From an uncultured Acidobacteriota bacterium (GTDB lineage: Bacteria > Acidobacteriota > Vicinamibacteria > Vicinamibacterales > UBA2999): a DNA stretch of 64,000 nucleotides. Below are positions 2,875 through 64,000 of this stretch, one piece after another. Location of the stretch: contig CAVRPA010000006.1 of assembly GCA_963723005.1 (NCBI GenBank), positions 81,280-145,279 of the forward strand, given 5' to 3'. The position numbers and the translations under genes were made by a program. The notes beneath the pieces were generated by a model. The model did no database searches and was not told the origin of the DNA. It worked only from the letters and a program-made list of their open reading frames with translations. Position 1 is the stretch's first letter. Each line of letters starts with the position of its first letter.

Positions 2875-3681
2875 CTAGGCGATCATCTCGGGCTGCAGCA
2901 CCTTCTCGACCGCGCGGCCGTTGGCGACGCTGACGTAGTAGACCTTGGCCTCGGCCCTGGCCGCGACCACGCGCTTCACCTCGTTGTCCTCGAAGTAGAG
3001 GCCGGCATCGTTGTCGCAGGCATAGCCCGGCTTCATCGCGCCGCTGCCGATCAGCTTCTGATAGAGCGGGCGGCGTCCGGGCTCCGCGTCGTAGTGCGGC
3101 GAATGGCTCCCCTTCAGGAAGCCGAGGCACTGCACGATCGACAGTTCCTTCGGGCGCGAGTCGGTGGTGCCTTCTTCGAACCAGCACAGCGACCCCGCGC
3201 TGGCGCCGCCGAGCACGATGCCGCGATCCCACGCCTGCCGCAGCACCACGTCGATCCCCTGTGCTTTCCAGATGGCCTGCTGGTTGAGCGTGTTTCCTCC
3301 GGAGCAGACGATGCCGTCCACGGAGAGCAGCACTTCTTCCCAGCTGCGCACCTGACTGAGGCTCTCGATGAAGCTGTCCTGCGCCGAGGCTTCGACGTTC
3401 AGCGGCGCGCAGTTCTTGAACCAGGTGATGGTGCCGGCCTGCGAGTCCGCGGAGGCAGTGGGAAGGTAACAGAGCTTCGGCCGCGGCTTGCCGGTGAGCT
3501 GCGCCATGTAGCGGATGAAGGCGGTGTTGAAGCCGCCGCCGGCGACCAGGATCTTGCGGGTGCCCGTCGGGGGCGTGGACTGCATCGATGAACCCTCGAG
3601 TGTGGAGACGGTCAGTCGGCCGGCGCCTGCCGCCACCGATCCCAGGATGGACGACCTGATGAATTCCCGGCGTGTGGCCAT
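2875..3681 (-). CDS. Tat-exported peptidase E (S51) family protein
   Basis: N-terminus MATRREFIRSS (twin-arginine); 'YLPTAS', 'SGGNTLN', nucleophile 'GASAG', 'SPHYD'. Confidence 0.88.
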   Translation of the reverse strand: MATRREFIRSSILGSVAAGAGRLTVSTLEGSSMQSTPPTGTRKILVAGGGFNTAFIRYMAQLTGKPRPKLCYLPTASADSQAGTITWFKNCAPLNVEASAQDSFIESLSQVRSWEEVLLSVDGIVCSGGNTLNQQAIWKAQGIDVVLRQAWDRGIVLGGASAGSLCWFEEGTTDSRPKELSIVQCLGFLKGSHSPHYDAEPGRRPLYQKLIGSGAMKPGYACDNDAGLYFEDNEVKRVVAARAEAKVYYVSVANGRAVEKVLQPEMIA

Positions 3682-3688
3682 GGTGGTT

Positions 3689-4174
3689 TCAGCGTCGGAC
3701 GGCGCGAGGCGTGAGGCCACCCGCGTTTCCGCGGGCGGGCTGCGGGCGGCTCGGCCCGGCGCTCGATGGCGGCACAGGCCGCTGCCCCTGGCCGGGCGGC
3801 GGAATCCGGGAAGCGTCCTTGCTCCATCCGTCCCGCCGATACGGTAGACGGCTTCCGTACCATCCGCCGCCAATGTAACCGGAGCCGTACCAGGCGTTGT
3901 TCTGCCAGTTCGGATCCAGCGGCTGCGCGGGTGTGACCTCGAGCGGCCCGAACGGGCCATGCGAGGGATCGCCGGCAATGATCAGGACGGTTGGGTTGTC
4001 GGGAAACACCGGCGGCGCCACGAACTGGCGCGCCGCGAGTGACGCCAACTCTTGCGCCGTCGCGGTGTGGGACCACGTCCGCGGCTTCCCCAGGTCGGCG
4101 TTGGTATACACGCGCGACTGCGCGAACGCCGGGGCCGCAAGCAACAAGCAGGCGACGGTGAGTCGTCCGACCAT
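3689..4174 (-). CDS. Hypothetical secreted protein
   Basis: Signal peptide 'ACLLLAAPAFAQ' followed by 'VYTNADL'; Pro/Gly-rich tail. Confidence 0.65.
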   Translation of the reverse strand: MVGRLTVACLLLAAPAFAQSRVYTNADLGKPRTWSHTATAQELASLAARQFVAPPVFPDNPTVLIIAGDPSHGPFGPLEVTPAQPLDPNWQNNAWYGSGYIGGGWYGSRLPYRRDGWSKDASRIPPPGQGQRPVPPSSAGPSRPQPARGNAGGLTPRAVRR

Positions 4175-55416: not shown

Positions 55417-56750
55417 TGCCCCTTGCCCCAGTGGTTGGTCCACACCGTGACGCGGGACATGCGATCGTACGGATAGCTCATGTGCATCCCGCCGGTGACC
55501 AGGTCCGGCCTGGAGTCGCCGTCGATGTTCCCGATCGCCAGCGTGATCAAGTGCGTCGGCGACGTCGCGAGCGGATGCAGCGTGAAGCCCATCTTGCCGT
55601 CGTTCTCGAACCACGCCAGGCTCTGCGCGTCCGGCTGTTCCCAGTTGTTGTAGGCACTCACCACGGCGATGTCGGTGTCGCCGTCGCCGTCGAGATCCGC
55701 GGCCTGCGGGCTGGAGGCGCCCGAGAAATCGCCGATGCGGTGATAGACGAACCGCACGTTCCCGCGATTCTCGAGCCACTGCAGCCCGTTCCATCCACGG
55801 CCGGTCGGCGGCGCGTAGTCGAACGCGTCGCCGTTGCTGTAGATCACGTCGGCATCGCCGTCGCGGTCGAGATCGGCGAGGCTGATCCAGCTGGAACCAA
55901 AGTCCTCGTTGCTGGCGCCGAACACCCGCGTGGGCGAGAACGCGCCGTGCCCGTCGTTGACGAACACATAGATCTCTTCCCACTCCTGGCTGACGAGCGA
56001 GACGATGTCGAGATCGCGATCGCCGTCGACGTCGGCAATCTCCGCGTTGATGGCGCCGGACAGCGTCTGCAGCACATGGCTCTCGAAGCGCCAGCCGCCG
56101 AGGTTCTCCATCCAGCGCGTCTCGCCCTGGTCGTAGCCGAACTGCGCGACCGACAAGTCGAGGTCACCGTCCCCGTCGAGATCGCCGGCGCGGACATCCG
56201 ACACCCGCGCCACCTGATCGATCAGCACCCGGCTGGTGAAGGATTGCCGGCCGTCGTTCTCCAGCACGATAACGGAGCCGATCCTGGCGTTGTTCGGGAA
56301 GAGCACGCCCATGCTGGCCACGGCGATATCCAGATCGCCGTCGCGATCGAGATCCACCGGTTGCACGTGCGCGGGTCCGGCAATTTCCGCCAGCACCTGC
56401 TCGGTGAACGTCCCGGCAGGCGCCTGACGGATCCACGTCACACGGTTGGCGGCGCCGTCGGCGACGACGATGTCGGTGAGGCCGTTGCCGTCCAGATCCG
56501 CCAGGGCGACGTTGGCCACCAGCGGACGGTCGTCGGGGCCGACAGCTGGCCCCACCGGCATCGCGGTCAGGAAGTCGATGCGTTCGCCGACGCGCGCCGA
56601 CGCGCGACTCGCGGCGATCGTGTCGGCCAGCGTCGATGGCCGGCCGGAGAAGACCTCACCGAGGGTGAGCCCTGACTGCCGGATCTGGATCACGAAAACC
56701 AGGACGACCGCGATGGCGGTCGCCCCGACGAGCAGCCAAACACGCTTCAC
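55413..56750 (-). CDS. FG-GAP/VCBS repeat beta-propeller protein
   Basis: Seven 'D.DGDGD.D' repeats; N-terminal signal or anchor. Confidence 0.92.
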   Translation of the reverse strand: MKRVWLLVGATAIAVVLVFVIQIRQSGLTLGEVFSGRPSTLADTIAASRASARVGERIDFLTAMPVGPAVGPDDRPLVANVALADLDGNGLTDIVVADGAANRVTWIRQAPAGTFTEQVLAEIAGPAHVQPVDLDRDGDLDIAVASMGVLFPNNARIGSVIVLENDGRQSFTSRVLIDQVARVSDVRAGDLDGDGDLDLSVAQFGYDQGETRWMENLGGWRFESHVLQTLSGAINAEIADVDGDRDLDIVSLVSQEWEEIYVFVNDGHGAFSPTRVFGASNEDFGSSWISLADLDRDGDADVIYSNGDAFDYAPPTGRGWNGLQWLENRGNVRFVYHRIGDFSGASSPQAADLDGDGDTDIAVVSAYNNWEQPDAQSLAWFENDGKMGFTLHPLATSPTHLITLAIGNIDGDSRPDLVTGGMHMSYPYDRMSRVTVWTNHWGKGQ

Positions 56751-56759
56751 GCAGCGATT

Positions 56760-59018
56760 CTATGGCGTGACGGCTTCTGTTCGCATCAGTGTCTGCAACA
56801 GCTCCACAGCTGCCGGAAGGGAATGGAACGGAAGTTCGAAACAGTCGGCGGTGCGCATCCACTGAACGAGCGCCTCTGCCTGCGCCCGATCGAGCCTGTC
56901 GGTAGAAAGCCTCGATTCCGCGAGAAGTCTTCGAAGCGCTACGGGGCGTGCCATGGGCCGAAGCTCCGTCACGTTCGCCCGGTTGTACGCCGGAAAGACG
57001 ATCCACTGAACGCGATGCGGCGCATCGGTGGTCGGAAGCGAGTTGGCCGGTGGCTGCAGGTATCGGACCTCCAAGTGGTCCTCACGCCGATGGATCGCAA
57101 GCGAGTCGATGTCCGGGTAGAGGTGTCGCAGAGGCGCCAGACTACCAGCCTTCACGGTCAAGGCAAGCGGGACGGGCCGGGCGGCGAGCGAACCCTCTTC
57201 CAGAATGCCGATCTCATCGGAGAAATACGTTGCGCCGGACTGTATGAGGGCGGCGGTCAACGTGGTTTTGCCGCTTCCAGCTGCCGCAGGCATCAACACG
57301 CAACCGTTACCGAACGACACGACGCCGGCGTGAACGCTGAGCAGGCCAGGGCTGTTGTCCACGGCGATCGACCGCATCAACATCTTCAGCGTGGGCACCG
57401 CACTCCCGATCCCGTCGCACCGTGCTAGTAGCGAGGATCCTGAGAGGACGGCCAATCCGCCGTTTCGCGACAACTGAACCTTCAGCGTGACGTCCGGTTG
57501 GCCTTCTGCCTGCTCCAGGTGACCGAAGGCCTCGTGAATGCGCTGCCTGAGTGCAGCGGAGCCCACTTCCAGCGCGAATGTCGTCGCCACGAGGCGATAA
57601 AGCTTGGTTCCGGCCGTTCCGTGGTTTTCGAGCTGTCGGAAGCCGTGGTGATGAGCGCTTGCTGCGCACCCGGATTTCCTCCGCCTGGAGGTCCACTTCG
57701 TCGGGATCGAGACGAAGAAAAGCGTCGAGATCCTCTCCAACAATCTTGAGGTCGCCAGCGATCGCCGATGGGGAGTGCCTGAACTCGGCGCGCAGTCTTT
57801 CGTTCGTCAAGAGCTGCGCCAGCGCTGCGGTCAGCGGCACCGGGTTGCCGGCGTCGGTGCCAGGATGACTGACGTAGCCCTGTCCGAACCACTGCCGAAG
57901 GATGGTGCCTACGTGGCCCGATGCCTCCGCCGGCTGCCACACCGAAGGCACGTTGGTAGGCCTGGGTGATGGCATCGACTTCGAGTCCATCCTCTAGCAG
58001 GCACCACACGAGCGTGGCTTGAGTGTTGAACAGGGACAACTCCCGATGATGCGCCGAAAAGCAAACGCCTTCGTCTTCGAGCACGAACAACGAAACGTCT
58101 GGGGACAGCAGCGGTCGGTCGATCCTGGGGGTCGAAGGACTGCGTAACGGGAACTCGTGTTGGCGCTGCCTTGAGGTTCGATCCTGCGAAACGGCCGGAA
58201 GGCTCCGCAGACTACTGAACCTCGAGCAGGCGCATCCTCCGCTAGCCGGACGAGGCGGTCCAAGTCGCGCTTTCCGGGTTCTGCGTCGCCAACGCCGTCA
58301 ATCTCTTCGAGCAGCAGGTAATCGGGAGTTCCGCGCGCCAACAGGTATTCCAGGAGCACCCAGGCTTCCGCGTCTATGCTCCCGCCTCTGCGATGGCGCC
58401 ACCGACCCGCCTCCAGTTGCACGCCACCCAGGCGCGCCGCGCCGATCATTTCTGTGGGTACCTCGTCCAGCCAGCGATAAGGGCTGAAGGCGCGGTTCCG
58501 GCTATCGATCAGGAGGGTTGAAATATCGAGGAGGAGTCGGCATTCCGCCTTATGGCAGAGCCGTTTGAGAAACTCTGCTTCCTTCAATGAGCCAGGAATC
58601 CGCAGCGGAGCGGCAATCGGTTCGACCAGAATCGGCCGGCCGAGCGACTCCCGAGCCTGAATAACGTGCTCGGCCGTGGAGGAGACGGTGGATTCGCTGA
58701 AACCGATTGGAATGCTCGCGTCCAATCGGATACCGCCGGCTTTCGAGAAGCCGAGCGGCTGAACGAAGGTCGTGGCACATGTGCGCACTCGCCCAAAGCG
58801 GCTAGCGCTTGGAGTTCCTCGGGGTCGAGTGGGCCGGGCGTTCCGAGGGATAGGTGAGACGCTCGCAACAGGACGCTGCAGCGAGCACCCAACCACGCCA
58901 GGAACGCCGAGGGGCGTCCGAAGAATCCCTCGGCGGCAATCTCGATGGCCTCGGGAAGGGTCGACTCGCCCTCCGCCGCTCGCACGTCGGAGTCGCCTCC
59001 GACTGAAATGCCGATCAT
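56760..59018 (-). CDS. Probable multidomain RiPP-type maturase: degenerate DUF692/MNIO-like + PqqD/RRE + helical domain + HprK-related kinase (at least 4 frameshifts)
   Basis: 59018-58230: 'HLSLGTPGPLD', 'LGRPILVEP', 'EAEFL..LC....CRLLLDI', 'LLLEE'; 58100-57870: 'FVLEDEGV.F....L..FNTQATLVWCLL..G' (PqqD); 57650-56760: 'HAGVV..G..VLM.AAAGSGKTTL.AAL...G..YFSDE' (HprK-like P-loop). Confidence 0.75.
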
Positions 59019-59049
59019 GCAAACGTCAAATCAGGGACGGCCGACCGAA

Positions 59050-59313
<264 letters not shown>

Positions 59314-59403
59314 AAAGATTTAGCCTCGCCTCGCGTTTATGCTGTAAGTCCCTCGTTGAGGCGACTTTTGTCTGTAAGTCACCGCACTGGAGATCTGCGT
59401 CCA

Positions 59404-60631
59404 CTAGCGAAAGCGCCGAATTCCAGGTTTCAACAGCTTCCACGCTGGAACCATAGCAAAATTCATGCCCCAGGCTATCGGGAAGTACGCCCATCGTAAC
59501 ACGCCCGGCAGCGAAACGATTTCCAGGTGCCACCTCTGCGGTGAGAACAGTGTTCGGGTCACGTATCGGTATCGGTCACTCCAGTCGCTCGCGCATGCGC
59601 AGACGAAAGTTATCAAGCTGGTGATTTGGCGTGATCGCATGTGCCGGCTTGAACAGGTTCAACATTGCGCGCTGGCCTAATTTCCTGGCCAACGGGTCAG
59701 CCGCGAGTTCACGATGGATAACCGCCGGCAGGTTAGCGCCGGCGGCTCGGTGTGCAAGCCACAAGCTGAGCAATAGAATGCGGCCACAACCGGCCCGTCT
59801 CGCATCGGCTAAGCAGGTTTCCAGATCCAATTCAGTGAAGCGGTTCAACAACGCCGGCCACGTCGCGAATCCAGGAGAGTCGCTCCCAGTGATGCTTCGA
59901 CTCCGTGAATGGCCAAGGTCAGCAGAAGGTCTCCTGGCGTGAGCGACTGGACATTGCGCCCGGCAAGCACTGTCGGTTGCGCACGCGCGTACATTTTTTC
60001 ACAATCCAAATCGATCGCCAGGGCTCGCTGGCTGAACGCCCAGTGGGGCTCCACCACCATGTCGTCTGACAGACGGACGAACTGATACTCGCACTGGAGT
60101 CGCTCATACATCCGCCGTTGAGTCGGGTTCAGGCGGAATGTTCCGGGACCACGGCCCGCATCCTGATACCCGCGTGATTCGAGCACATCGCAAATCGCTT
60201 CCACATCCTGCCGACGGACGAGAAGGTCCAGATCGCCGGGCGCACGCAGCGAGACATCTCCGAACACCAGCTGCGCGAGCAATGGACCCTTGAAAGGGAC
60301 GGCAATGATGGACCGCTCTGCCAGCGCATTCAGCACGGCGAACAACTCGTCTACGAGCGCTGAACTCTGCTCGGCAAGGTGACCGCAGTGGTGACGAAGC
60401 GCCTGCTAGCAAGTCAGCGGGAACAAGAGATGGATCCGCCCGCTCAAGAGCCCCCAGTAGCGCCGGGGTCATCCGATGCCGGAGAGCAAGCTCGACCACC
60501 CGCTGCCAGTCCAATGGCTTGCGAAGTGCCTCATCGACGTCCTCCCCCGCACGATCGGCGACACTGGCGGCCGCAAGCAATAGGGCGTTTTCAGGAACGT
60601 CGATGATCGAGGATTCAGAGGACGTGGCCAC
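59404..60631 (-). CDS. Nucleotidyltransferase family protein (NTP_transf_5-like); at least 3 frameshifts
   Basis: 'LDWQRVVELALRHRM.P', 'FKGPLLA...GD..LR..GDLDLLV', 'VEPHW', 'LAIHG.KH.W.RL.W..D'. Confidence 0.85.
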
Positions 60632-60750
60632 AATGCTGCTCTCGAATCATCCTTCCGAGAGCATATCCGGATGTAATCGAGCGCACACAGCGGCACGCAG
60701 TCGCTTCGAAGCCCGGGCGGTTGAGAGTAGCAAACGCCGGATCGACCGCC

Positions 60751-61390
60751 CTAAGGTGTGACTCGCGAAACCTTCACGACCTTCGATGGGCGGCGTCAGC
60801 TTCTGGGCCTCGGTGTTGATGGTCCGGTTCGCCGACGAGGGCGCCTGCTGAATCTTCCGCACCACGTCCATCCCCGAAACCACGCGGCCGAAGGCCGCGA
60901 AGCCCTGACCATCGGGATTTCGCTTGCCGCCGAAGTCGAGCGACGGCTGATCGTTGATGCAGATGAACCAACCCGAGGTGGCGCTGTCCGCGCCGCCGCG
61001 GGCCATCGAGACGGCGCCGTCGGTGTGCTTCAATCCCGTCACGCTGGTGCGCTCGAGCGGGATGGGCGGAAAGCCGCTCTTGGCCTGGTCCTCGCGGACG
61101 CCGGCCTGGATCACCTCGATCTTCACCGGGCTCTCCGGCTGGTTGTCCATCTTGACGGTGCGGTGGAACGTGCCGCCGTCGTAGTGGCCGGCATCCACGT
61201 AGCGGAGGAAGTTCGCCACCGTTCCGGGCGCGCGTTTGCCGTCCACCTCGATGACGATGTCACCGAGTTCGGTCTGCACGCGCACGCGGGCAGTGGCTGG
61301 GGCTGCGGTCTGCGCGTGACCGAGCGGGCTGGCCCATGCCAGCCCGCCGATCACTACGAGAGCGCGAACAAACGTTCGTCGCGTCGTCAT
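60751..61390 (-). CDS. Exported cyclophilin-type peptidyl-prolyl isomerase; frameshift near the C-terminus (about 60785)
   Basis: 'AP.TVANFLRYV..G.YDG..FHR', 'H.DGAVSMAR..ADSATS.WFI', 'FGRVVSGMDVV.KI'; N-terminus 'TRRTF'. Confidence 0.9.
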
Positions 61391-61399
61391 CGGTGTGCC

Positions 61400-64000
61400 T
61401 CAGAACCGATACGTCGTGGCGAACTGGAACTGCCGCCCGGGCCAGACCGCACTGCCGCCGGTGTGTTGTCCGAAGTTGGCGGCGGTGATGACCCCGACGT
61501 AGCCGTCGGCGGTCACGTTCCACTGGTTGAACGCATTGAAGATGTCGGCACGGAACTCGATCCGGTCATCTCCCACGCGGAAGATGCGCGCCAGCGTGAA
61601 GTCCGTGTAGACGATCGAGTCGCCGCGCGCCGTGTTCCGTTCGCCGGGCCGCGCCGCCTGGCAGCCGCGGGTGCTGCACTGCGTCAGCTGCGTCCCCGTC
61701 GGGTCGCCGGCATAACGGATGGAGTAGGGCGTGCCGCTCATCGCGCGGCTGACGCCGCTCAGGCGCCAGTCCCTGGTGATGATGTTTTCCCCCGGCACGT
61801 TCCAGGTGGCGCTGGCGACGAAGTTGTTGGGCGTGTCGGCACCGGTCCGGCCGCGGTCCAGCTCGGGATCGTTGCTGTCCTCGGGCGCGAACCAGTGATT
61901 CAACCGGTCCTCGGCCTTCGACAGGGTGTAGGACACCGACAGCGTCAGGGGCGCGGTCCGGTAGTTCCCGGAGAAACGCACGCCCTGGTACCAGAAGCGG
62001 CCTTCGTTCGTGAGCACCTCGACGCGGCGGAAGCCGTTCGGCACCGGAAGCTCGGGGCGCGTCAGGTCGGCCTGCGCCACCGTACGGATGGTCGCGCCGT
62101 TGGCGGCGTTGAGGACGTCCTTCGAGATCGACGCCGGCGCGTTCTGGTCGAGGAAGCCCTGCTTCTGGCCGCGGTTGAGATTGGCGTCGATCGCCACGCT
62201 GGCTCGCGCGCCGACCTGCCGCTGGACGCCGAAGCTGGCCGTCCACGCGCGCTCGTTCTCGAGCGTCGGCGAGATCTCCTGAATCGAGCGAATCGGCAGC
62301 ACCGTGTCAGACGGCAGCGACGGGATCGCGTTCGGGTAGGTCGGGAACAGCGGGTTGCCGGGGGTCAGGTTCAACGTCACGAGGCCGTTCCGGCCGCCCA
62401 CACCACCCTTGACGATGGTGAAGATGGCCTGCTGCTGCGTGAACCAGCCGGTGCCGCCGCGCACCGCCCACTTCTGGTCGCCGGCGACGTCCCAGGCGAA
62501 GCCGAGACGCGGATCGACGTTGTCCTTGTCGGCCGGTGCCGGATAGTCGGGCACGTTCTTGATCCATTCGACGTCGTAGCGCACGCCGAGGTTGACCGTC
62601 AGGTTGCTGGCGACGCGCCAGTCGTCCTGGAGGAAGCTGGTGAGCACGTAGGCCTTCGGGAACATCAGCCGCGCCTCGGGAACCAGCGCGAACGCCTGAT
62701 CGTCCTGGAACGGCGTCGGCGCCACGTTGGGCGCGCCGGCGAAGCGGTAAACACCGTTCTGCAGCGGCGCGAACAGCTGCTCGGTGACGTCGTAGGTGAG
62801 CGAGCCGCCGGTCTTGATGGTGTGCGCGCCGAACCAGAGCGACACCGTATCGGCGACGTCATAGGTCTCTTCCGGCAGCACGCCCCACGTGCCCTGGTCG
62901 TAGCAGCCGCTGGTCGAGTAGGCGGTGCGGACAATGGCGACGCCCTCGCACTTGGCCTCGCGCGAATCGGTGTAGCGCGAGTACCTGCCCACGGACTTCG
63001 TTCAGGAACCGCTCCGAGCGCACGCTCTGGAACGTGCCGTGGATGGTATCCACGTTGTTGTCCCAGTTGAACCCCGTGCCCGGCAGGTTCAACCCGCCGC
63101 TCTCGTTGTCCTTGTGCCACCGCACCATGTTGTAGCGCACGCCCAGCGACGACTTCTCGGTGAAGCGGATGTCGGCGCGGAACTGGCCCTGGTGCTCGTC
63201 GGCCGGAGTCTGGACCACCGGCGCGGTCGCCTCGGGCGAGGTGAGCGCCACTTCGCTGCGCTCGCGGCGGCGCTCGTAGCTGCCGAAGAAGAACGCCTTG
63301 TCCTTGATCATCGGGCCGCCGAGGACGCCGCCGAACTGCTGCTGGTTGTAGGGGGCCTTGGTCGGCGCCAGGGGTGGCTTGGCGTCCCAGTCGCCGGGCC
63401 GGATCATCACGAACGCCGAACCGGACACGATGTTGGTCCCGCTCTTGGTGATCATGCTGGACACGCCGGCGGCATGGCCGCCGAACTCGGCCGAGAACTG
63501 GTTGGTGATGATCTGCATCTCCTTCACCGTCTCCAGCGCGAAGCCGCCCGACCCGAGCTGCGGCGCGCGCTGCAGCGTCAGCCACTTCGAGTGGTTGTTG
63601 GTGCCATCCACGTAGGTGCCGAAGTTCCACACCTCGCCACCGCCGACGTTGACGGCGTTGGTGCCGGGCCGGCTGGCGACGACGTTCGAGTCGAGCGTGA
63701 GGAGCCGCATGTAGTTGCGTTCCTTCACGGGCAGCGTCTCGAACTGCGTCCGATCGATCGTCGTCGACACCTCGGCCGAGGTCGTCTGCACGATCGGCGA
63801 ATCACCGGCGACGGTGATCGTCTCCTGCAGCGACGACAGCTTCATCTGGATGTTGATCACCGCCCGCTGGCCGGCGTTGAAGACGAGATTGTTCCTGATC
63901 TGGCTGGCGAAGCCGGTCAGCTCGGTTTCGATCTCGTAGCGGCCTTCGGGTGGCAGGCCGGAAAACACGTAACGTCCGGACGTGTCGGTGGTCGCCGTGC
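61400..64000 (-). CDS. Oar-type TonB-dependent receptor (5'-truncated by the window; frameshift near 62990)
   Basis: 'ETITV', 'SAEFG', 'TKSGTN', 'QDDWR..NLT.NLGVRYD', 'PRLGFAWD', 'IFNAFN', C-terminal Phe. Confidence 0.92.

Follow-up and report, generated by a model that had tools for sequence, protein, structure and literature searches.

The DNA analysed here is a stretch of 64,000 nucleotides (the window) from an uncultured Acidobacteriota bacterium (GTDB lineage Bacteria; Acidobacteriota; Vicinamibacteria; Vicinamibacterales; UBA2999), read from positions 81,280 to 145,279 of contig CAVRPA010000006.1 (assembly GCA_963723005.1). Its minus strand carries three neighbouring genes, for a large fusion protein, a small candidate precursor peptide and a nucleotidyltransferase of the NTP_transf_5 family (Table 1). 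We focus on the first domain of the fusion, a barrel at 59018-58210, which an initial annotation made from the sequence alone had read as a DUF692/MNIO-like domain with most of its iron ligands replaced and as a probable pseudo-enzyme. MNIOs are actively studied for the unusual iron-dependent oxidations that they perform on peptides. The flagged stretch is a relative of these iron-dependent, peptide-modifying enzymes in which nearly all of the iron-binding residues have been lost, and it is the N-terminal domain of a conserved protein of about 770 residues with three domains: the MNIO-like barrel, a PqqD-type domain and an HprK-related kinase of the Ser/Thr type.

The strings from which the domain had originally been recognized are all present in minus-strand translations, 'LRASHLSLG' in the open reading frame (ORF) 58584-59018 and 'VQPL', 'VEP', 'LLDIST', 'ARLGG', 'RHRR' and 'LLEEID' in ORF 57994-59022. 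The Pfam profile PF05114 (MbnB_TglH_ChrH, the MNIO family, formerly DUF692) matches the longer ORF over profile positions 89-241 of 263 with 87.5 bits (E 1.1e-24) and the shorter over positions 24-80 (E 0.0066). The cut-off of this profile (its gathering score) is 25 bits, and the intact orthologue from the same-genus genome G018 reaches 120 bits. The DUF692/MNIO assignment is far beyond chance. Sequence searches of the PDB with the window domain find TglH (8hci, E 2.9e-9) and a Haemophilus DUF692 protein (3bww, E 5.5e-5). This domain is the single PF05114 match in its genome, an assembly of 6.10 Mb in 22 contigs that is 88.1% complete. The best NCBIfam match of the barrel is the bufferin maturase BufB, and it stays below the cut-off of every MNIO equivalog family: BufB (106 versus 310 bits), HvfB (90 versus 360), ApyH (68 versus 400), ChrH (18 versus 600) and MbnB (13 versus 325). 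A look-up in the ESM Atlas returned 'MNIO family' and nothing further. An AlphaFold2 model of the domain, built with a 96-row alignment from the intact G018 orthologue and not from the window copy, has a mean pLDDT of 92.3 and a pTM of 0.87. A Foldseek search with this model ranks TglH first (8hci_B, TM 0.75), next 3bww and MbnB from three species (TM 0.68-0.80), and later sugar epimerases and endonuclease IV (TM about 0.5-0.6). In the model, R54, P89, E134, D166, R197 and position 239 each lie at, or one residue past, the C-terminal end of a barrel strand. The family membership proposed at the outset is thus borne out by profile, sequence and fold, and the structural check proposed along with it gave the best superpositions on TglH and MbnB.

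In MbnB, Fe1 is bound by H54, H90 and the bridging E133, Fe2 by E133, D163, H192 and E239, and Fe3 by N166, D208 and H210 (PMC9060507, in part). At these nine positions the window reads, in order, R, P, E, D, T, R, H or R, R and E, so that three of the nine ligands are kept (E, D and the last E); the match to D208 is uncertain, as it falls in a poorly aligning loop (GRWRHRR in the window). The replacements lie in recognizable motifs of the barrel's second frame piece: FVQPL (Pro for His), VEP (Glu kept), LLDIST (Asp kept, Thr for Asn) and ARLGG (Arg for His), with GRWRHRR and LLLEE further on. Four alignments (MAFFT, hmmalign, and phmmer against 3bww and against 8hci) place the replacements on the same MbnB ligand columns, which rules out misalignment. 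The same replacements recur in a set of 26 full-length fusion homologues (724-818 aa, 37-81% identity to the reference P0002). There, the H54 column holds Arg in 24, Lys in one and Gly in one; the H90 column is Pro in all 26 and the H192 column Arg in all 26; the N166 column holds Thr (19), Ser (3), Ala (3) or Asn (1); and the E239 column holds Asp (10), Gly (7), Asn (4), Glu (3) or Gln (2). From a multinuclear iron site, this family retains only the E133 and D163 equivalents, each in 26 of 26. The claim that iron ligands had been replaced, two of them by Arg, therefore holds for the family, as does the argument that such substitutions are not indel artefacts, since intact homologues share them. 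The accompanying claim that the acidic ligands E, D and E remain stands for the first Glu and the Asp, but the third Glu, although present in the window, is found in only 3 of the 26 homologues.

Canonical MNIOs of the same genus (L017 and L018) score 307-309 bits on PF05114. They show the pattern H..[DE]H..EN..D..N..H, which the majority of the top database relatives have too. When the intact G018 orthologue was used for a word-index search, 8000 candidates were scored and 23 proteins reached E ≤ 1e-5, 22 of 727-818 aa and one a 539-aa fragment, all named 'DUF692 family protein' or 'UPF0276', with two names indicating Acidobacteria and Vicinamibacterales; an exhaustive profile search gave 3311 matches at E ≤ 1e-3, 55 of them at or below 1e-30. 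Mean pairwise identity among the 26 fusions is 0.41 in the barrel, 0.55 in the PqqD-like domain, 0.48 in the helical region that follows it and 0.54 in the kinase, and 0.16-0.20 in the two linkers. When the barrel core is compared with contigs of near-identical strains, 10 synonymous and 5 non-synonymous changes appear among the differences listed (18 further differences are unlisted). Close homologues keep the Arg rather than the His, and because they share the replacements, neutral decay of the ligands is ruled out. The loss of the ligands is thus a conserved family trait under constraint, in a domain that is maintained rather than decaying. To the extent that sequence, fold and conservation can speak to it, the reading as a pseudo-enzyme is supported.

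The barrel belongs to a larger protein. In three same-genus short-read assemblies (G018, G011 and G014), a single uninterrupted ORF of 833-880 codons, stop to stop, encodes in order the barrel, a Pro-rich linker, the PqqD-like domain, the helical region and the HprK-related kinase. The PqqD profile PF05402 (cut-off 23.4 bits) scores 26.4 bits in a further genome, G585, and 18.6 in G011, and 7 of the 23 database homologues are listed with it; in the model, this domain consists of three strands and three helices. The helical region, with helices at 405-471 in the full-length model, matches the leader-type family NF038399 (NHLP) weakly (E 0.003-0.005) in two of the three fusions scanned. We note that this region (P0002 residues ~403-458; window 57622-57933) could be a built-in leader-like segment. 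For the kinase, TIGR04352 (HprK-related kinase A) scores 105.5 bits in the window (E 2.6e-30), 99-113 bits in three intact fusions (E 1e-32 to 3e-28) and has E 1.6e-25 in G585. The P-loop GSGKT and the SDE residues are invariant in the 26 fusions, and the kinase looks active from its motifs. A model of the full-length fusion has a pLDDT of 86.5 and a pTM of 0.83, and only the linkers 269-302 and 470-512 and the last seven residues fall below a pLDDT of 50; Foldseek with this model returned barrel matches only, with no kinase match among ranks 1-49 of at least 500.

The system is present in 7 of the 194 genomes of the window genome's family, its own genome included. In six of these the barrel is fused to the kinase. 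In the seventh, G585 (99% complete), a 280-codon standalone barrel gene with the pattern R, H-P, E-N, D..A, R (PF05114, 108 bits) is directly followed by a separate gene for the PqqD-like domain, helical region and kinase, and the apparent internal stops of the G585 system are the border between these two genes. That the two parts are fused in six genomes and adjacent in the seventh argues that barrel and kinase work together, and bears out the link to a kinase that the initial annotation had drawn.

Table 1. Features of the fusion gene and its neighbours in the window (profile positions refer to the fusion family profile)
Feature	Positions	Strand	Remarks
HprK-related kinase domain	56760..57656	-	intact P-loop AGSGKTTLTAAL; stop codon 56760-56762
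Helical region, PqqD-like domain to kinase	57622..57933	-	profile positions 353-456
PqqD-like (RiPP recognition element) domain	57932..58165	-	third frame; profile positions 276-353; PF05402 matches in homologues
Variable linker, barrel to PqqD-like domain	58166-58209	-	
MNIO-like barrel, remainder	58210..58776	-	second frame; profile positions 83-271
MNIO-like barrel, N-terminal part	58779..59021	-	profile positions 2-82; ATG at 59018; 'LLRASHLSLG', Arg for first ligand His
Small ORF, candidate precursor peptide	59053..59313	-	Tat-signal-like conserved part (ARREFL...TAPAVA...AAAQY) and variable tail
Perfect 6-base tandem repeat, 12.3 copies	59067..59140	.	inside the small Tat-like ORF
NTP_transf_5 nucleotidyltransferase gene	59413..60631	-	five frame pieces; PF14907 matches in three ORFs; tblastn with intact G002 and G018 proteins

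The neighbours of the fusion gene are conserved with it. The small ORF, part of whose product resembles a twin-arginine translocation (Tat) signal, occurs in all seven system genomes, in eight copies (two in G018). In six of them it lies directly upstream of the fusion, and in G585 the distance to the barrel gene downstream is about 2.2 kb. The part that is conserved, ARREFLxxVGKAAVTAPAVALLLTASxxPAAAQY, precedes a variable tail, and Tat-like features (an RRxFL motif, a hydrophobic stretch and an AxA site) can be read in all eight peptides; TIGR02811, a family of small Tat targets, matches weakly in five of five scanned (E 0.0019-0.68, all below the cut-off). The tails are mostly rich in Arg and Pro and most are strongly cationic; in G585 the tail reads TPPSNGCGSA. 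A single Tyr is the only invariant residue after the signal-like part. In G018 (L013/L040, ~3440-4075), two tandem Tat-like peptide genes have different tails, one of which ends PRPRPRPRPRRRRR. The tandem repeat in the window's small ORF reads (GN)12 followed by AVAVS in the frame of the ORF and (RQ)12RRRR-stop in another frame. This second reading is similar to the Arg-rich tails that most of the homologous peptides have, so a further single-base error may conceal the real tail.

All seven genomes likewise have an NTP_transf_5 gene or ORF, that of G014 being assigned by its sequence likeness to the others only. G585 has a richer cluster (L052, 3551-10698), in which NTP_transf_5, a nitroreductase-family gene, a Tat-like peptide with a tail of Cys, Ser and Thr and a YcaO/ThiF-like gene lie together with the standalone ligand-poor MNIO-like gene and the PqqD-kinase gene. 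The peptide gene stands there between the nitroreductase-family and YcaO/ThiF-like genes, a typical setting for peptides that are made by ribosomes and modified after translation (RiPPs). Neither a lasso cyclase nor a B2 protease turned up in the cluster of the window or in the inspected loci. The three-gene cluster (56760-60631) sits between FG-GAP and peptidyl-prolyl isomerase (PPIase) genes in the window and beyond a TonB-receptor gene in the genome G002 (L015, 6492-10532). Protein identity between the window and G002 is 88-95% for flanking genes and 45-57% for the cluster genes compared (barrel and NTP_transf_5), and the GC content of the cluster is 0.59-0.63 versus about 0.70. By these measures the cluster looks like a separately placed, fast-diverging island.

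The fusions are part of a wider group of ligand-poor barrels. We built a maximum-likelihood tree by a quick method from 132 domains with the six scored ligand columns removed, using a midpoint root for drawing only; the sample is biased, being taken from the best 150 matches to a profile of this same domain. One starred split (SH-aLRT 99) divides 50 rows from 82. The 50-row side holds 25 labelled fusions, one more fusion (P0027, which has Gly for the first ligand), the 783-aa P0122 and 23 shorter rows, 20 of which are ligand-poor (including a truncated G002 domain), while P0029, P0037 and P0050 retain at least five of the six. In 44 of these 50 rows, two or more of the scored ligands are lost, versus all six being present in 76 of the 82 on the other side and in 77 of the 132 domains overall. 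This division suggests that in one subfamily the iron site was no longer needed and eroded in several ways, the fusions being the most uniform branch of that subfamily. Among P0029-P0079, standalone MNIO-like proteins of 260-290 aa carry varied partial ligand sets, for example RAAENDSH, REHGNDDR, RHPENDAR and AEPENDAR, and Ala has usually taken the place of the third iron's Asn ligand in them, even with the di-iron ligands present. A profile of the standalone form, run across the phylum (401 genomes), matches 63 genomes, and the 20 loci retrieved are all canonical HDHENDNH enzymes; an unpublished genome, G106, is counted in this tally, and no conclusion here depends on it. Metagenome contigs searched with the standalone P0043 gave no related locus, and with the fusion alignment one weak, kinase-only locus (L039).

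How, then, might the barrel be used? MNIOs work as heterodimers with a partner that bears a RiPP recognition element (RRE) and presents the precursor to the mouth of the barrel. We propose that here the iron site was lost, with R54 and R197 standing at the former first and third His ligand positions (one of Fe1, one of Fe2), and that these two Arg residues, together with the retained bridging Glu and Asp and with R207 and D211, probably fill the former metal site as salt bridges. The barrel would have been kept as a non-oxidative docking module of the kinase: barrel and adjacent recognition domain would hold the small Tat-signal-like peptide encoded upstream, as MbnB does with MbnC and TglH with TglI, and the kinase domain would then phosphorylate the held peptide. 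The NTP_transf_5 enzyme may afterwards extend the phosphate, an idea modelled on the kinases of lasso peptides and on the nucleotidyltransferase of pseudomycoidin. Precursors of lasso peptides are phosphorylated by HPr-kinase homologues, and in the case of pseudomycoidin this phosphate receives a hexose from a nucleotidyltransferase (PMC8498205, in part). A de-metallated MNIO-fold barrel serving as the substrate-docking module of a three-domain peptide kinase is, on balance and by a modest degree, the account that we consider probable. Several observations weigh against it. The peptide tails have no conserved Ser, Thr or C-terminal Ser among their eight copies, the kinase domains (90-113 bits) stay below the TIGR04352 cut-off of 200 bits, and the window copy as assembled cannot make a protein. 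In addition, a His adjoins the Pro of the H90 column in 12 of the 26 fusions, and with E134 and D166 retained and D211 near-invariant, a reduced metal site is possible. A complex prediction of the barrel and PqqD part (residues 1-460) with the peptide alignment scored 0.16, where the mark is 0.32, and speaks neither for nor against docking.

Two other functions for the barrel deserve weighing on the same residues. The pocket could be an anion site, as the initial annotation had suggested. Its Arg lining would bind a nucleotide, a C-terminal carboxylate or the residue that has been phosphorylated, for instance to hand a phosphopeptide over to the nucleotidyltransferase or for repeated phosphorylation. 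The former metal site does hold the conserved R54, R197 and R207 (in 'GRW'), phosphate chemistry is likely given the partner domains, and a sulfate or cacodylate bridges two irons at this place in MbnB and 3bww (PMC9060507, in part). However, three conserved acidic residues (E134, D166 and D211) face these three Arg residues, bringing the net charge to about zero, so that an internal network of salt bridges fits at least as well, and most of the peptide tails are themselves strongly cationic; we regard an anion site as unlikely. Alternatively, the barrel may still be an enzyme with a reduced cofactor or none, for example with a mononuclear Mg or Mn on Glu134, Asp166 and Asp211 and a non-oxidative step on the peptide, for which related xylose-isomerase-like barrels offer a model. 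The invariant Glu and Asp and near-invariant Asp211 would allow this, metal-dependent sugar epimerases and endonuclease IV come next after the MNIOs among the fold neighbours, and the barrel is conserved well above the linkers. Yet six to seven of the nine ligands are gone, conservation extends neither to the neighbouring His88 nor to the last Glu, and the many ligand sets of the related standalone proteins are what one would expect of a dispensable site, which makes retained catalysis the most doubtful of the readings considered here.

The remaining alternative concerns the window's own copy, which could be a true pseudogene in a recently frameshifted cluster, the domain being idle in this organism. 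The initial annotation had missed that this copy is frame-broken, so that the domain is not one open gene as assembled. The fusion gene is complete against the family profile and runs through five frame pieces (59021-58779, 58776-58210, 58165-57932, 57933-57622 and 57656-56775, minus strand), that is, four frame changes, the barrel itself being split over the first two; the NTP_transf_5 gene has four frame changes as well. Further in favour of a pseudogene, a database protein from another assembly (P0001, 97% identical) takes the same route out of frame, none of the indel sites is a homopolymer (both points lead away from assembly error), and the cluster is patchy within its family, as the seven genomes above indicate. 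Against it, contigs of three other public sequencing runs (X20, X1 and X2, 90-99% alike) show seven length differences from the window within 56700-60700, and the window has one extra base every time. Three of these extra bases fall exactly at the frame switches 58210, 57932 and 59583, and another (58143) in the linker between two switches; the switches FS1 (~58779) and FS4 (~57640) lie outside the coverage of these contigs. The true-frame pieces contain no stop codon; of the 55 invariant residues they keep 54, and of the 71 near-invariant ones 68. Conserved flanking genes likewise change frame relative to G002, the TonB-dependent receptor (61400-63998) near 62986 and the PPIase (60647-61390) near 60783, with the proviso that the G002 assembly may itself carry frame errors. 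In addition, a genome in 22 contigs that is yet only 88% complete would fit the indel-rich long-read assemblies in which this is often seen. A frame plot of GC at third codon positions was too coarse in resolution for counting frameshifts. Recoding or a different genetic code as the cause of the frame breaks is ruled out by the single extra bases and the lack of a stop pattern. The one-sided pattern of single bases suggests systematic insertion errors, and because it is accompanied by open true frames and retained invariant residues, we hold with good confidence that the frame changes are likely to be insertions of the assembly, whereas a genuine pseudogene appears improbable to us.

Our preferred reading, a metal-free docking barrel, places the system next to several known ones. 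With MbnB, TglH, BufB and HvfB it shares the family, the TIM-barrel fold (TM 0.68-0.80), the bridging Glu and the Asp, an adjoining, putatively peptide-recognizing domain of the RRE type and a small candidate precursor gene upstream. It differs from them in the replacement of six to seven of nine iron ligands, two His by Arg, in scores far under every equivalog cut-off, and in its fusion to a kinase, which takes the place of pairing with an MbnC, TglI or DUF2063 protein; it is not expected to carry out oxidative chemistry. In bufferin systems, the partner of BufB is a DUF2063 domain fused to an RRE, and the substrates have signal peptides (PMC12452194, in part). Lasso-peptide systems with HPr-kinase homologues (paeninodin type) and the pseudomycoidin nucleotidyltransferase resemble ours in that a small peptide gene is accompanied by an HprK-like kinase, a nucleotidyltransferase and a PqqD-type domain, whereas here the peptide is Tat-like, has no conserved C-terminal Ser and is paired with a kinase that carries an MNIO-like barrel. 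The HprK-related kinase A system (TIGR04352) is the best model for the kinase domain, which nevertheless reaches about half of the curated cut-off, its match being confined to model positions ~85-280. A parallel for the barrel comes from carbonic-anhydrase-related proteins, which are folded, metal-free pseudoenzymes with ligand His residues replaced in part by Arg and act as binding modules, although their fold and biology are unrelated to those of the barrel.

Our literature search, with subscription-only papers outside its reach, found no paper that joins DUF692/MNIO with an HPr-type kinase or a pseudoenzyme, and none on the HprK-related kinase family TIGR04352. The portion of the MNIO landscape paper covered by the search, supplements apart, makes no mention of kinase, PqqD, Acidobacter, twin-arginine or nucleotidyltransferase (PMC12452194, in part), and another MNIO paper has kinases in its reference list only (PMC12257519). 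As far as the searched literature goes, an iron-free MNIO barrel fused to a peptide kinase is thus an arrangement for which we found no description; what is new here is a variant, as the MNIO fold and RiPP kinases are both already known. We put forward more tentatively, as a possibility that we consider less likely than not, that this is the first pseudo-MNIO, an iron-free barrel acting as the substrate clamp of a peptide kinase, within a new RiPP-like pathway of soil Acidobacteriota: the Tat-signal-like leader would be recognized by the barrel and the recognition domain, and the short, hypervariable, mostly Arg/Pro-rich tail or the invariant Tyr would be phosphorylated, and perhaps nucleotidylated or glycosylated, before export.

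A branch of the MNIO family that is folded, constrained and attached to a kinase while having no iron site would reveal a second, non-catalytic use of this barrel, most likely the holding of a peptide. It would also caution genome miners that a DUF692 annotation need not mean oxidative chemistry. For the bacteria that carry the system, the combination of a kinase, a nucleotidyltransferase and a Tat-like leader points to a peptide pathway that has yet to be described.

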